Origin: Candidatus Levyibacteriota bacterium
Lineage (GTDB): Bacteria; Patescibacteriota; Microgenomatia; Levybacterales; UBA12049
Reading direction: 5' to 3'
Length of the DNA stretch: 64,000 nucleotides
Assembly: GCA_016204465.1 (NCBI GenBank)
Contig: JACQKQ010000012.1
Span: forward strand, 16,769 to 80,768
The notes below the pieces were generated by a model that made no database searches, was not told the origin of the DNA, and was given only the letters and a program-made list of their open reading frames with translations. Both the position numbers and the translations under genes were made by a program. This document shows, piece by piece, positions 35,494 to 41,201 of the stretch; position 1 is the stretch's first letter, and each line of letters starts with the position of its first letter.

Positions 35494-35748
35494 CTATAAA
35501 ATTGGCTTGCCGAATTTGATAAGGTTTTCTTTCTTTTCTCTGCGCCAGCCCTTAATTTGTTTCTCGCGTCTTCTAGCTTCCAAAAGGGTAGAAAAATGTT
35601 CTGAGTAAACAAGGACGAACGTTTTGTTTCGTTTTGTAAACTCTGCCCCGTCTCCTCTTTGATGTCTTGAAATGCGTTTATTAAAATTGTTCGTTACTCC
35701 AACATAAAGATGGTTTTTGGGGCCACGAAAGAAATAAACAGTAAACAT
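35494..35748 (-). CDS. GIY-YIG nuclease superfamily protein (small UPF0213/YhbQ-like)
   Basis: FTVYFFRGPKNHLYVGVTNNFNKRISRH...EARRREKQIKGWRREKK is a GIY-YIG core. Confidence 0.85.
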   Translation of the reverse strand: MFTVYFFRGPKNHLYVGVTNNFNKRISRHQRGDGAEFTKRNKTFVLVYSEHFSTLLEARRREKQIKGWRREKKENLIKFGKPIL

Positions 35749-35792
35749 TTTTTTGCCCTTCAGTAGACTCACCTTTCGATTTTACTCAAGGT

Positions 35793-35844: not shown

Positions 35845-35867
35845 GACTCTGAGCTTGTCGAAGAGTC
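35845..35867 (+). repeat. CTGAG-N5-CGAAG hairpin repeat, copy c (abuts the tRNA-Pro 3' end)
   Basis: GACTCT-GAGCTTGTCGA-AGAGTC. The stem differs from copy b by two compensatory base-pair changes. Confidence 0.75.
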
Positions 35868-35936
35868 GGGATGCCGTGAATCGAACACGGACTACCGCAC
35901 CCCCAGCGCGGCGTACTACCACTATACTACATCCCG
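35866..35936 (-). tRNA. tRNA-Pro (anticodon GGG)
   Basis: Hand-folded minus strand: CGGGATG TA GTAT AGTGGTA GTAC G CCGCG CTGGGGG TGCGG TAGT CCGTG TTCGATT CACGG CATCCCG A. The acceptor stem pairs perfectly (7 bp), the T-loop is TTCGATT, and no CCA is encoded. Confidence 0.9.
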
Positions 35937-35967: not shown

Positions 35968-35995
35968 TTGCATTATAGCAGAAAGGTGTTACAAT
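35968..35995 (+). promoter_or_regulatory. Putative promoter for recA
   Basis: TTGCAT (35968-35973), a 16-nt spacer ending TGt, and TACAAT (35990-35995). AAAGGAG SD sequence before the ATG at 36016. Confidence 0.45.
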
Positions 35996-36015
35996 TTGAG
36001 CGAAAGGAGCGCGAT

Positions 36016-37107
36016 ATGGCAAGAGGAAAAGGGAATGGTGAAGTTAAAACCGCACATGGGCCCCAAGCAGATTCCGCAGCAAAACTGCAAGCAATACGCA
36101 TGGCCATGGATCAAATCGAAAAACAGTATGGTAAAGGTTCAATAATGCGATTTGGTGAAGCAGCAGATAAACTTGATATTTCGGTTATCTCAACCGGCTG
36201 TTTGCCGCTGGATATTGCTTTGGGTGTTGGGGGACTTCCTCGGGGAAGAATTGTTGAGGTGTTTGGTCCTGAAGCATCTGGGAAAACTACCATTTGTTTG
36301 TCTGTTATTGCCCAGGCGCAAAAACACGGCGGTGTGGCAGCTTTTATTGACGCAGAGCATGCCCTTGATCCTATTTGGGCAGAAAGAGTTGGTGTTAAGC
36401 TTGAGGATCTTCTCATTTCACAACCTGATACCGGCGAGCAGGCACTGGAGATTGCAGAAAGCCTTATAAGGAGTGGAGGTATAGATGTTTTAGTCATAGA
36501 CTCTGTTGCAGCCCTTGTTCCGAGAGCCGAAATTGAAGGAGAAATGGGAGACGCAATGATTGGCTTGCAAGCCCGTCTCATGTCGCAGGCCTTAAGAAAG
36601 CTTACCGGCGTTATTTCAAAATCCAAAACCATTGCCATTTTCACCAACCAGTTGCGCCAAAAAATCGGCATCATGTTTGGCAATCCAGAGACAACAACCG
36701 GCGGATTGGCTCTTAAATTTTACGCGTCGGTTCGTCTGGATGTTAGGAAAATAGAAACGCTTAAAGACGGCGACAAGGCAATAGGTTCGCGGCACAGAGT
36801 AAAAATTGTTAAAAATAAAGTGTCTTCGCCGTTTCGCATCGCGGAGTTTGATGTGACAGGGCAAGAAGGTATTTCTCGAGAAGGCGGTATTATTGATGTT
36901 GGTTTGGAAATGGGAATTCTACAAAAGTCCGGCGCGTTCTACCGGTACGGAGAGACAATGATTGGCCAGGGTAAAGAAGCATCAAAAATATTTCTTAAGG
37001 AAAAACCGGATATTGCCAAAAAAATCGTTGACGATATCCTCAAGCACAACAAAACAGGTGGCACGCCTGTTGCGGTTGGCATTGAAGAACAAGAATTAGC
37101 TTCGTAA
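36016..37107 (+). CDS. recA: Recombinase RecA
   Basis: [16 protein letters not shown] Walker [13 protein letters not shown], and the L2 region GNPETTTGG. Confidence 0.97.
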
Positions 37108-37307
37108 GTCTTAAAATTTCGTATATTTCCTCTTGATCTATTCGATTTCATTCAGGTCATAGACTCTGAGGTCTGACGACCTCGTCGCTCAGACTCGCAG
37201 AGATCAATACTGAATGAAATTGAAGTATTGACACCCAACTATATAGTCAGTTAAGATAATTTCAATTAACAAGAGAGGGCAATGGATGCCTGTTTCCTAA
37301 ATTGTAT

Positions 37308-38903
37308 ATGCCAACAATTATGCAACAGACAAAACAACTCTTAACAATCAAAGAAGCCAGTCGTTGGGCGAGCGGCTTTCTCAAGAAGGATGTTAGCGAC
37401 TCCAATATCTCCTATTTGGTGCAATACGGAAAAATTAAAAAGCACAACTGGAATAATTCAGTTTTTATTGATGTAAATGATCTCAAGAATTATTATGACT
37501 CATATCGAGGCCAGCGAGAGGTGAACTGGAAAAAGCGGCTTGGTAATGATTTGAACTGGCTATTGTCTTTTGATCATTTGCGCGAGAAGGACACAACTAA
37601 GCATGTCCACAGGCTTCACCCATACAAAGGAAAATTTATTCCGCAACTTGTCGAGTATTTTATTGATAGCCACACTGACGATTTCAAAACAAGTGCGTAT
37701 TTCAAAACAGGCGATATTATTCTTGATCCTTTTTCCGGCTCCGGCACAACACTTGTGCAAGCTCATGAAATAGGAATACATTCCATCGGGATTGATGTCT
37801 CTCGCTTCAATTGCATGATTACGGAAATAAAGTTGTTGAATTATGACATGGGCGCGCTTGAGGAAGAAATCAAAAGAATAAAAAATGCAATTATAAACCA
37901 CGAAGCAGATAGCAAAACTACTGTGTTTGAGCGCGAGCTATTAGAGTGCTTGGCTGATTTTAATAATCAATATTTTCCAAGCCCGTCATTCAAATACAAC
38001 GTGCTACAAGGACACAGCAACGAAAGTAAATATGTCGAAGAAAAGGAAAAAGAATTTCTCAAAATCTACAATAATCTTGTCAAAAAATACGAAATTGAAC
38101 TAAACCATTCTACCGGCAAAACCTTTTTGGAAAAATGGTTTATCAGAAATGTTCGAAAAGAGATTGATTTTGCCTTTGAACAAGTCAAGACAATAAAGGA
38201 TGTAAAAAATAAGAAAATCATTGCAGTAATTTTGAGCCGCACTATTAGATCGTGTCGTGCAACTACTCATTCGGATTTAGCGACGCTAAAAGAGCCACAA
38301 TTGACTACTTATTATTGCTGGAAACACAAAAAAATCTGTAAGCCGCTTTTTTCTATCAAGACATGGTTTGATCGCTATGCGAGTGATACAGTTTATCGGC
38401 TCAAAACTTTTGCGCGACTTAAAACGAGTACTCACTATTCAGTTATTCCTGCTGACTCCCGAACAGTTAATATTTTCAAAGAAGTTGAGAGGCGAAATAA
38501 ACGGTTTCACGAAATACTGCAAAAACAAAAGATACGGGGAATTTTCACTTCGCCACCGTATGTCGGGCAAATTGATTATCACGAGCAACATGCTTACGCA
38601 TACGACCTCTTTGGTTTTGAACGTCGAGATGAGTTTGAAATTGGGCCGTTATATAAAGGGCAGGGTGCAGAAGCACGCGCGTCTTATGTTGATGGCATTT
38701 CAAAAGTTTTACTCAATTGTAAAAAGTTTTTGGCGGATAATTTTGATATATTTCTTGTGGCAAACGACAAGTATAACCTTTATCCCGCAATTGCCGAACA
38801 ATCTGGAATGAAAATAATCAATCAGTTTAAGCGGCCAGTACTAAACAGAACCGAAAGGGACAAATCTCCTTATTCGGAAATAATTTTTCATTTGAAGGGA
38901 TAA
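37308..38903 (+). CDS. Type II DNA methyltransferase (N6-adenine or N4-cytosine; SAM motif precedes SPPY)
   Basis: HPYKGKFIPQLV...ILDPFSGSGTT (motif I region, residues ~105-150) and FTSPPY (motif IV, residue ~417). Possible N-terminal HTH. An alternative TTG start lies at 37302. Confidence 0.85.
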   Translation: MPTIMQQTKQLLTIKEASRWASGFLKKDVSDSNISYLVQYGKIKKHNWNNSVFIDVNDLKNYYDSYRGQREVNWKKRLGNDLNWLLSFDHLREKDTTKHVHRLHPYKGKFIPQLVEYFIDSHTDDFKTSAYFKTGDIILDPFSGSGTTLVQAHEIGIHSIGIDVSRFNCMITEIKLLNYDMGALEEEIKRIKNAIINHEADSKTTVFERELLECLADFNNQYFPSPSFKYNVLQGHSNESKYVEEKEKEFLKIYNNLVKKYEIELNHSTGKTFLEKWFIRNVRKEIDFAFEQVKTIKDVKNKKIIAVILSRTIRSCRATTHSDLATLKEPQLTTYYCWKHKKICKPLFSIKTWFDRYASDTVYRLKTFARLKTSTHYSVIPADSRTVNIFKEVERRNKRFHEILQKQKIRGIFTSPPYVGQIDYHEQHAYAYDLFGFERRDEFEIGPLYKGQGAEARASYVDGISKVLLNCKKFLADNFDIFLVANDKYNLYPAIAEQSGMKIINQFKRPVLNRTERDKSPYSEIIFHLKG

Positions 38904-38908
38904 GAATC

Positions 38909-39724
38909 ATGAGTTTACCCCAAGAAAAAAAAGAAAGGATATCAGAGGTTATTAAAACCATCCTTGTTTCAAGGATAGATAACTTTCCGGAACTAAATCA
39001 TCAAAATAGAAATGCGCCATTTCATGATTTAATTCTAGAGGCGTTCGAGAAGCAGCTGAAACCAATAAATGTACCTACGCCCTACTTAGTCGCAATAGCA
39101 AGTTGGATGCATGGTTTAAACACCTCGCTAGGTAGTGGATTTGAATCTTTAGCACATATTTTATCTGGAGGATATAAAAGAAATTTTACCCAAAAATTCA
39201 CGTTAAAAGTTAAAAAATCTCAAGCTGAAAATATAGGGAACATAATTGTGGAGTTAAAAAGCGGAATAAAACCTGCAACACAACGAGAAAATGAAGCCAT
39301 ATTTAAATTTAACAAGGGAGAAACGGAAGTAAATGCACTGGAGTTTACAGTAGACAATTATATTGAGACAGCAAATCTAATCGAGGGGATAGAATTGAAG
39401 TCGGTTAGACCAAACTCTGGCGAAGGGAGAGGAGAGAAGCAAAAAATATTATATGCAAAAGCTGCTTTTAAATTATTACACCCTGAAAAAGAAATCAAAT
39501 ATTATATTGGGTTTCCATTTGATCCAACTTCAAAAACAGCAATTGGATATGATAAAGAAAGATTCTTTAATTATTTAGTAGAATTTAAAAAATTCTTCAC
39601 CTTTAATGAAGTTTTATTATCATCAGAATTATGGGATCATCTATCAGAGCAGAAAAATACAATGGAAGAAATTTTTGAGATTATAAGCAAAACTATCGAG
39701 GTAGTAAAAGCCTCTAATTCATAA
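38909..39724 (+). CDS. Putative type II restriction endonuclease (PD-(D/E)xK-like; possibly TdeIII-like)
   Basis: Starts 5 nt after the methyltransferase stop. VDNYIETANLIEGIELKS gives a D-x12-E-x-K arrangement. The family assignment is from memory only. Confidence 0.5.
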   Translation: MSLPQEKKERISEVIKTILVSRIDNFPELNHQNRNAPFHDLILEAFEKQLKPINVPTPYLVAIASWMHGLNTSLGSGFESLAHILSGGYKRNFTQKFTLKVKKSQAENIGNIIVELKSGIKPATQRENEAIFKFNKGETEVNALEFTVDNYIETANLIEGIELKSVRPNSGEGRGEKQKILYAKAAFKLLHPEKEIKYYIGFPFDPTSKTAIGYDKERFFNYLVEFKKFFTFNEVLLSSELWDHLSEQKNTMEEIFEIISKTIEVVKASNS

Positions 39725-39769
39725 ACCTACATTTAAAGTCGGCAGAAATAGCAACTGTAGAGGAAAAAA

Positions 39770-40015
39770 ATGAAAGCAATTAATTTACAGCAAGAGTTGA
39801 ACTTTATTCACTCTGAAAAAATGAATATTTCTAACAAAGATAGTTTATATTTTGAAATGTTAAATATTGCCCATGTTTTAATTTCAAATTACGCTAACGC
39901 AGAAACGAGGAAATTAAAATCTTTCTACGCAATAGTTTATTGGAAGACAAAAAATTTTATGTTGAGCATTGTAAATAACCCAAATACTAACGGGCACATA
40001 AAAAGGACAAGATAA
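39770..40015 (+). CDS. Hypothetical small protein (81 aa)
   Basis: GAGG SD sequence 7-8 nt upstream. AT-rich, with no recognisable motif. Confidence 0.4.
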   Translation: MKAINLQQELNFIHSEKMNISNKDSLYFEMLNIAHVLISNYANAETRKLKSFYAIVYWKTKNFMLSIVNNPNTNGHIKRTR

Positions 40016-40041
40016 GGATTTAGTTTTTGGAGGTAAGATGT

Positions 40042-40581
40042 ATGAATGAGCAGGAAAAAGAATTTTGGGAAAAATTTAAAAGGTGGAATCTTGATGATAT
40101 TGAAAGAACTATCAAGACTGAAGCCTATGTTGGTGCCGCAAAATTAATTTGTTGTGTGATTGACGCACTCGCAGGTTTTAGATTTGGAGCTGTTAGTAAT
40201 CAAGGATCAAAGTTTAGATTTATTAGTTTCGTGAAAGAGTTCATGCCAAAATTTAAGTATAGACTGCTTGCGAAAAGAAACGGGATAGTTATTTATAAAC
40301 GAAGCATTTTAGAGATGCTTTATAACAATTTTAGATCTGGATTAATTCATGAGGGGTTGCCAGGAATAGGAACGGGTATATTTAGAGACGAAAATATACA
40401 CTCACTTTTTAGAATACCAAAACCAGACAAATTAGAAATTAATGTTTTGGGTTTATTTGAATACTTAAAATTTGCATTATCTGAATATGAAGGGAAGCTC
40501 AATAAAGGAATATTTTTGAACGAATTTCGTGAAAGACTAAATTTTATTGGTGACAAAAGAAGAATACCAAAAATATCATGA
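40042..40581 (+). CDS. Hypothetical protein with HEPN-like Rx4H motif
   Basis: GGAGG SD sequence before the ATG at 40042. Appears alpha-helical by composition. FRSGLIHEG fits R-x4-H, the minimal HEPN RNase motif. This is weak evidence. Confidence 0.4.
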   Translation: MNEQEKEFWEKFKRWNLDDIERTIKTEAYVGAAKLICCVIDALAGFRFGAVSNQGSKFRFISFVKEFMPKFKYRLLAKRNGIVIYKRSILEMLYNNFRSGLIHEGLPGIGTGIFRDENIHSLFRIPKPDKLEINVLGLFEYLKFALSEYEGKLNKGIFLNEFRERLNFIGDKRRIPKIS

Positions 40582-40691
40582 ATTATTCAATAATCCAAAA
40601 ATCTAGACTTCGAGAAAGAAATCAAAGGAGCTTTTGGGGCAAGCAAAAAGGAAAGTTGAAGCGATGATTGAGCAAAACTCTTAAGGCAATT

Positions 40692-41201
40692 ATGGATCAG
40701 CTCGACGTACTGTACAACAAGGCACTCCGTTTTCTCTCCTTTCGTCCTCGTTCAGAAAAAGAAGTTCGCGACAATCTCCTCAAGAGTAGGAAAAGTATAA
40801 AGAAGGTAGAAATAGATCAAAAAGTTATTGATCAAGTAATTACAAAACTTAAAGAGCAACACTTTGTTAACGATGAAGAATTCACAAAGTGGTGGATTGA
40901 ACAGCGGACAAAGTTTCGACCGAAAGGAAAACGGCTTATTCAGATTGAACTGAAGCAAAAAGGAATAGCGCAAGAGACAATAGAAAGAATAGTTGAAAGT
41001 TCAGAGTTGAAAGTTGAAAATGAATTAGAACGAGCCAAGGTGTTAGTTCAAAAAAAGTTACGAAAATATAAAAATCTTCCTCGATTTGAGCAGTATCAGA
41101 AATTAGGCGCAATGCTGGGGCGGTTTGGATTCGATTATGACATAATCAAGCAGAGTATTGACGAGGTTTTAAGAGGGGAGTATAATACATCTAAAGACTG
41201 A
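40692..41201 (+). CDS. recX: Recombination regulator RecX
   Basis: ALRFLSFRPRSEKEVRDNLLK and repeated three-helix modules. An alternative TTG start lies at 40668. Confidence 0.8.
   Translation: MDQLDVLYNKALRFLSFRPRSEKEVRDNLLKSRKSIKKVEIDQKVIDQVITKLKEQHFVNDEEFTKWWIEQRTKFRPKGKRLIQIELKQKGIAQETIERIVESSELKVENELERAKVLVQKKLRKYKNLPRFEQYQKLGAMLGRFGFDYDIIKQSIDEVLRGEYNTSKD

Follow-up and report, generated by a model that had tools for sequence, protein, structure and literature searches.

orf179, a candidate HEPN-like effector gene flanked by relics of a restriction-modification operon in a Candidatus Levyibacteriota genome

HEPN genes linked to restriction-modification (R-M) systems are an established theme and comprise at least 16 clades (PMC3710099). 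The HEPN core is a four-helix up-down bundle with an insert between helices 2 and 3, and its defining motif, R-x4-6-H, lies at the end of core helix 3 and the start of the loop to helix 4; typically N, D or H stands right after the Arg, and a second acidic residue, typically in the context Ex3[KR], lies in helix 2 (PMC3710099). The nearest described arrangement to the one considered here is that of PrrC, an anticodon nuclease of the HEPN superfamily encoded within the EcoprrI Type Ic R-M operon (PMC3710099). The subject of this report is orf179, a gene in a stretch of 64,000 nucleotides (nt) from a Candidatus Levyibacteriota bacterium (assembly GCA_016204465.1, contig JACQKQ010000012.1, positions 16,769 to 80,768 of the forward strand; hereafter the window), together with its small upstream neighbour orf81. 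A preliminary description had pointed to an R-x4-H motif in the larger product and proposed a HEPN ribonuclease (RNase). The best explanation of the whole of the evidence, to which a probability of about one half is given, is that orf179 encodes a stand-alone HEPN-like endoribonuclease effector.

The likeness to PrrC of EcoprrI lies in an R-x4-H effector gene (predicted in the case of orf179) inside an R-M operon beside the specificity gene, and in a latent RNase proposed as a second line behind restriction (PMC3710099). Embedding beside hsdS, as seen for PrrC and RloC, was found in five contexts of orf179 homologues, with only relics in the window, where the copy has lost its operon. The second mark of PrrC and RloC, fusion to an N-terminal ABC/Rad50-like NTPase, was not found: PrrC carries a regulatory N-terminal ABC-type NTPase domain, whereas the orf179 protein is a single domain of 179 amino acids (aa) with no ATPase match, and no sequence similarity between the two is detectable. 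The host operon of orf179 also differs from EcoprrI in consisting of a methylase with an N-terminal PD-(D/E)xK domain and a specificity gene (S), with no HsdR helicase nearby. In this it resembles BcgI-like Type IIB and Type I-related M+S systems, as the intact relatives encode a methylase/nuclease (RM) protein of about 650 aa (651 aa) with HSDR_N_2 nuclease-type, N6_Mtase and Eco57I domains and a partner Methylase_S protein. The window keeps the last seven RM codons and both ends of S, nothing functional, and the subtype is read from domain order only.

Both open reading frames (ORFs) of the preliminary description were found on the plus strand at the positions given there (Table 1), the larger encoding 179 and not 180 aa. 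They are co-directional and AT-rich as described, with GC of 0.31-0.34 across 39-41 kb against about 0.42 elsewhere in the window. The ATG of orf179 is preceded by GGAGG at 40029-40033; a start at TTG 40027, giving 184 aa, was rejected because the homologues begin at the MN..EK of the ATG. Ratios of nonsynonymous to synonymous substitution rates (dN/dS) against the closest homologues were 0.05-0.16 for orf179, indicating purifying selection, and 0.13-0.15 for orf81, and both are real coding genes under constraint. A protein identical (100%) to that of orf179 belongs to Candidatus Levybacteria.

The close family comprises 17 proteins, namely that of orf179 and 16 relatives, mostly from metagenomes of the candidate phyla radiation (CPR), and HMMER, run over the full set of 1.84 billion cluster representatives, returned 176 at E ≤ 1e-3. 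One deep-search match (P0155), a eukaryote-type RhoGAP repeat protein, was a false positive and was excluded from the alignment (A3). Across the 149 members aligned, only R98 and H103 reach at least 90% conservation (145 of 145 and 142 of 144, respectively). By itself an R-x4-H motif is weak evidence, as the preliminary description had cautioned, because it turns up in 15% of shuffles of orf179 and because a second copy, R115-H120, is not conserved. It is the conservation across the family that raises the motif above chance and makes it the defining invariant of a real family. The consensus R-[C/N/S]-G-L-[V/I]-H was found in nearly all members, the residue after the Arg (position 99) being C in 77, N in 49 and S in 7 of 144. 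Further conserved positions are 41 (D or E in 141 of 147), 134 (N in 104 and D in 17, together 121 of 140) and Y94 (in 121), and no metal-ligand pattern, whether Cys4 or a second His, is conserved across the aligned family.

The family is spread over CPR bacteria, Bacteroidota, Bacillota and Pseudomonadota, with members found in Flavobacterium and Lachnospiraceae and on plasmids of Agrobacterium, Rhizobium, the Bacillus cereus group and Arcobacter. All named or annotated members are labelled hypothetical protein, no member was found in the phage collection, and the orf179 protein had no meaningful match among Pfam, NCBIfam, PADLOC or PHROG models or PDB sequences. The orf179 family is a horizontally spread, unnamed one; while the kind of system is known, the family is absent from the libraries searched. 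It should also be noted that in at least four clusters (P0166, P0192, P0194 and P0216) the family domain is fused to a C-terminal AIG2/GGACT (gamma-glutamyl cyclotransferase-like) domain.

The genomic contexts of the homologues were then compared, with six additional loci coming from pattern scans of genomes and metagenomes. All five independent contexts of close homologues hold, in order, a LexA-family gene, RM, no or one other cargo gene, the orf179 homologue and S. The large RM protein is called MTase_I by PADLOC, with a weaker match to mad2. In every intact cassette the LexA-family gene (LexA_DNA_bind and Peptidase_S24 domains) lies directly upstream of RM, with a gap of 2-4 nt or an overlap of 4 nt where the genes were called. 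Because the outer flanks of these lexA-RM-cargo-S cassettes differ among genomes, lexA appears to belong to the cassette itself, and the R-M operon may be under SOS-type control; the relic in the window stands between recA and recX instead. One context continues with a RhuM gene and a PD-(D/E)xK gene.

In other cassettes of this type, varied RNase-type or unannotated genes were found in the RM-S slot or at positions adjoining the orf179 homologues. Locus L010 has an NYN gene and a 181-aa gene, another such gene encodes a 185-aa protein with RNNLFH and a weak match to the CARF_HEPN model, and further slot or neighbouring genes encode proteins of 164 aa with RNAACH, 379 aa with RHNIIH and 251 aa without a match. 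In L009 a HEPN protein of PF05168 (a fragment) is encoded directly downstream of the orf179 homologue. The 181-aa slot protein of L010 was considered as an orf179 homologue and rejected as not homologous.

Among more distant members, one neighbourhood contains an Eco57I-type methylase, HNH, HEPN_AbiV and Mrr genes, and others contain SIR2 and ToxN, AIPR and Mrr, or HEPN/Toprim-associated and SMEK genes. The prediction that homologues would lie in defence neighbourhoods thus held, the family being strongly associated with R-M and other defence genes. A distant member in Flavobacterium sp. CYK-4 (L016, 6337-7717) was observed 10 nt downstream of a HEPN_AbiV-family gene, with an Eco57I-type methylase and HNH_5 in the same co-directional run and a convergent Mrr_cat gene following.

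In every intact operon the start of S overlaps the stop of the orf179 homologue. This suggests stoichiometric co-expression, and it raises the question of a different role, in which the protein is a non-catalytic accessory of the M-S complex with an assembly, regulatory or nucleic-acid-binding function, its Arg and His binding phosphate or nucleotide. Such a role is in keeping with the basic character of the protein (isoelectric point 9.6), with the lack of a conserved antitoxin-like partner and with the existence of HEPN-type domains that serve as binding domains and not as RNases (PMC3710099). However, the distant family members are mostly solitary genes with no M or S nearby, which argues for an autonomous function, the orphan orf179 of the window stays intact and constrained without RM or S, and the four invariant polar residues resemble an active site more than a binding surface. 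An accessory role is consequently regarded as unlikely.

The sequence on either side of orf179 in the window shows similarity to the ends of RM and S, in the same order and orientation as in the intact cassettes. The 18-mer at the RM end (Table 1) also closes the RM genes of L018 and L019, without any difference, and that of L001, with one mismatch, and the relic matches L010 at 96% over 25 nt. Alignment with L001 runs at 80% over 571 nt from the start of orf179 through its stop and into the first 11 codons of S, and the 5' relic of S matches the S-start consensus at 26 of 30 positions. The 3' relic of S matches L001 7813-7877 at 80% over 65 nt (E 2e-9) and L018 at 83% over 59 nt, with E values for such matches of 2e-9 to 1.5e-10, so that about 1.24 kb of S is missing between 40610 and 40611. 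No LexA, RM or S gene was found elsewhere in the 64-kb window. From these alignments, orf179 is all that survives intact of a decayed operon with the order RM-cargo-S, one of the Type I/IIB-like M plus S kind. Its GGAGG, noted previously as a good ribosome-binding site, is present and serves as such, and it consists of the Trp-Arg codons of the deleted RM gene.

The preliminary description had assigned both genes to one inserted island together with the adjacent R-M genes, which here are a methyltransferase gene and a TdeIII-family endonuclease gene. This assignment was not upheld: neither gene belongs to the TdeIII pair, and orf179, with remnants of another R-M operon on both sides, did not arrive with it. 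Its adjacency to that pair is secondary, and the methyltransferase is a present-day neighbour and not the original partner.

Pieces of the same operon ends were also observed at other places. The first ~35 nt of S (ATGAWTTATTCAATAATCCAAAAATCTCAACTTGA) recur after cargo genes, besides or replacing the functional S start, and in L010 and L022 these copies are followed by a common 24-nt element (GGTTCGGCAAGCTCACCACAAGAG). The 18-mer of the RM 3' end recurs ahead of four different cargo genes, and L022, with a different set of cargo genes, has an S deletion of this kind behind them. The recurring RM-3' and S-5' pieces have the look of scars left where cargo was exchanged through recombination in conserved operon ends.

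Two AlphaFold models were used to examine the HEPN proposal, model 1 being that of orf179 (predicted local distance difference test score, pLDDT, 88.8; predicted template modelling score, pTM, 0.84) and model 2 that of P0198, a family member of 20% identity (pLDDT 93.6). Both show a long helical hairpin, with an acidic residue in helix 2, then an insert and a helix 3 ending in R-x4-H; after it come a small beta unit, a long helix with the conserved Asn just ahead of it, and a final helix. The earlier expectation of an alpha-helical protein was right as to the presence of helices but not as to a purely alpha-helical fold, since model 1 is of the alpha + beta kind, with seven helices and five short strands. 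In model 1 D41 falls in the helix at residues 29-48, R98 is the last residue of the helix at 89-98, and H103 is in the loop after it; in model 2 R121 and H126 stand at the end of the helix at 110-127. The family therefore has the conserved R-x4-6-H of HEPN proteins, and in both models it is placed at the end of helix 3, with the His in the loop in model 1. On the evidence of the models, this order of elements appears to match the catalytic layout given in the superfamily review for the metal-independent HEPN endoribonucleases (PMC3710099), and the orf179 protein may work like a HEPN RNase, at about even odds.

A number of results weigh against this reading. The rule of a polar residue after the Arg fits only about one third of the family, with Cys in about half, and no K or R stands four residues after D/E41, so that the Ex3[KR] context is absent in the family. 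HEPN-clan Pfam models gave no match to the 149 family members at E ≤ 0.01 or even at E ≤ 10, a PADLOC scan of the same members matched no defence model, and the family profile and the orf179 protein found no match among PDB sequences. Comparison by hhalign of the family profile with the AbiV-like neighbour and two neighbours with RNxxxH motifs stayed at chance level (probabilities <1%), though in one such comparison the best local alignment, itself at chance level, paired motif with motif. Some distant members have no obvious defence genes nearby. Moreover, the guard model described below cannot apply to the orf179 of the window as it stands, because its presumed R-M partner has been lost.

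Structure searches were likewise without a significant result, neither model having a Foldseek match in the PDB below E 0.45. The weak matches to model 1 included three unrelated HEPN proteins in the top 15, namely AF_0298 (2hsb, template modelling (TM) score 0.53 on the target), AbiV (9bj7) and Csx1-Crn2, and the top match to model 2 was Csm6, at a meaningless TM. In BFVD, Foldseek matched a single unnamed viral protein (E 3e-5), which was not informative. Profile and fold checks of the kind that had been suggested, run on orf179 and its family, gave no significant link to HEPN or to any other fold. What stands of the HEPN proposal is the invariant motif, its position at the helix end and the acidic residue in the preceding hairpin helix, and membership of the HEPN family is unproven because no profile or structure search gives a significant link.

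Comparison with single-domain HEPN proteins gives a similar picture. AbiV, ApeA and other R-M-linked single-domain HEPN clades are, like the orf179 protein, small stand-alone proteins encoded in defence islands, and an AbiV-family gene stands directly beside the Flavobacterium member. However, no family member matched the AbiV or ApeA Pfam models, and AbiV is usually without the motif His (PMC3710099), which the orf179 family keeps invariant. The beta element directly after R-x4-H is shared with Csx1, for which it has been described (PMC3710099), and Csx1-Crn2 and Csm6 are among the top but not significant Foldseek matches to the models (E > 2, TM 0.19-0.34); orf179 differs in having no CARF domain or CRISPR context.

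The lack of any significant structural or profile match despite two high-confidence models could also mean that the fold is new and unrelated to HEPN, with a convergent R-x4-H and with a chemistry based on His103 and Asn134 or otherwise, in an effector that might be, for example, a DNase. Model 1 has a beta bridge formed by I102-H103, and its strand ahead of the long helix ends at N134. This pair, a strand-borne His and a helix-capping Asn, would bear a loose likeness to the His-Me finger nucleases. In the more confident model 2, however, R and H both lie at the helix end, which is not His-Me geometry; the weak structural neighbours that turn up more than once, few as they are, are HEPN RNases, and a conserved metal-ligand pattern is missing. 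An unrelated fold of this kind is considered quite improbable.

A broader version would make the family a structurally new effector domain, with its R-x4-H either convergent or extremely diverged, and the CPR operon a previously undescribed, SOS-wired defence hotspot. A LexA-family repressor gene would then share an operon with the methylase/nuclease gene, the S gene and, between these two, a slot whose RNase-type cargo is exchangeable, and recombination in the conserved ends (RM-3' and S-5') would swap the cargo. Such novelty of the fold and of the lexA-wired slot is held to be doubtful; more probably, orf179 represents a new family of HEPN-like effectors in an R-M-linked setting of a known kind.

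In the preferred reading, that of a HEPN-like endoribonuclease effector, the gene is carried in CPR relatives as cargo of a lexA-linked R-M operon, between the PD-(D/E)xK-methylase and the specificity subunit. Its product would be a latent RNase, expressed together with the M/S complex and possibly kept in check by it, and its targets once restriction has failed would be host or phage RNA. The HEPN fold and the RNase activity are predicted, and the guard-type mode of action is proposed by analogy with PrrC/EcoprrI and other R-M-embedded HEPN genes. In the window, deletion of the RM gene and of most of S has orphaned orf179, which now stands between recA and recX next to a TdeIII-type pair unrelated to it.

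It had also been suggested that orf81 might be a partner or antitoxin of orf179. The two genes stand side by side in the same direction, separated by 26 nt, and in L022 an orf81 homologue, located between a PD-(D/E)xK/wHTH-like gene and an NYN gene, is directly upstream of the latter, a predicted RNase gene, so that orf81 could be a generic partner of RNase cargo. However, an orf81 homologue was present in none of six independent contexts of orf179 homologues (one of them that of a 38%-identity relative), and the converse also holds: in a tblastn comparison of both proteins with 21 loci, no locus had homologues of both. In L010 the orf81 homologue comes just after the intact S, apart from any cargo. 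The junction itself is a rearrangement scar, since nucleotide similarity to L022 stops at 39960, making the last 18 codons of orf81 unique to this copy, and this unique tail abuts the RM 3' relic. In addition, orf81 has only five family sequences, against 176 clusters for orf179. Because the homologues never co-occur elsewhere, a pairing as toxin and antitoxin lacks support, and a two-gene toxin-antitoxin or effector-partner module is very unlikely. Rather, orf81 is a separate small basic protein travelling with the same cassette type in Levybacteria-like genomes, and not a dedicated antitoxin of orf179. Its start is preceded by GAGG at 39759-39762, seven bases upstream; its homologues are four proteins of 68-69 aa at 74-79% identity and one identical sequence, and it had no meaningful family match in Pfam, NCBIfam, PADLOC or PHROG. 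A 57-aa gene after S in L028 was considered as a further homologue of orf81 and rejected as not homologous.

If the orf179 protein is an RNase, an unannotated effector family of about 176 clusters, found also on plasmids, would join the second-line defences attached to R-M systems, and defence-annotation tools would gain a new model. The relics show cargo genes outliving the R-M operon that carried them, and they caution that present-day adjacency, as to the TdeIII pair, should not be taken for functional linkage. The CPR lexA-RM-cargo-S operon also offers a compact natural system for asking whether an R-M complex guards embedded RNases.

Table 1. Coordinates of features in the window and, where a locus is named, in the loci compared with it.
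Feature	Location	Strand	Remarks
orf179	40042..40581	+	ATG 40042 to TGA 40581; intact member of an unnamed R-x4-H family; predicted HEPN-like effector
FRSGLIHEG, residues 97-105 of orf179	40330..40356	+	R98 at 40333-40335; H103 at 40348-40350
D41 codon of orf179	40162..40164	+	Conserved acidic residue in predicted helix 2; family alignment and model
N134 codon of orf179	40441..40443	+	Conserved polar residue just before the next long helix; family alignment
RM gene, 3'-end relic	40016..40036	+	Codons G-F-S-F-W-R-stop; 18-mer TTTAGTTTTTGGAGGTAA
S gene, 5'-end relic	40578..40610	+	MNYSIIQKSRL; its ATG and the orf179 stop overlap in ATGA, the arrangement of intact operons
S gene, 3'-end relic	40611..40684	+	RKKSKELLGQAKRKVEAMIEQNS-stop, in another frame; last ~24 codons of the same S
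orf81	39770..40015	+	81 aa, ATG 39770 to TAA 40015; small basic protein, isoelectric point 9.85
recA	35968..37107	+	Left flank of the AT-rich block; from the ORF list, named by eye from the translation
Type II N6/N4 DNA methyltransferase	37302..38903	+	Pfam N6_N4_Mtase 4e-17; PADLOC MTase_II 4.9e-228
TdeIII-family Type II restriction endonuclease	38909..39724	+	Pfam RE_TdeIII 1.2e-44; PADLOC REase_II 2.8e-59
recX	40668..41201 as listed	+	Right flank; Pfam RecX_HTH1/2/3
LexA-family genes	L001 2867-3508; L005 3394-4053; L006 3246-3887; L010 690-1328; L019 1163-1756		L019 from a tblastn match
Slot or neighbouring cargo genes	L010 3289-3825; L022 1301-1825, 1963-2520; L001 5486-5980; L019 3695-4450; L009 415-1554, 2158-2547
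S-start copies	L010 4552-4606, 3945-3988; L019 4452-4481; L022 2518-2576; window 40578-40610

The AT-rich block lies between recA and recX, and no meaningful repeats were found flanking it. For recX, a start at ATG 40692 (MDQLDVLYNKALRF...) is more likely than the listed TTG, because the latter falls within the S-gene relic. As no terminator-like site was found on the plus strand between recA and recX, the four genes and recX may be co-transcribed. A promoter-like site was observed upstream of the methylase gene at 37228-37257 (TTGACA, 18 nt, TAAGAT). Just upstream of recA lies a tRNA-Pro(GGG) gene on the minus strand (35865-35936), adjoined by an ORF of 92 aa on the same strand (35494-35772).
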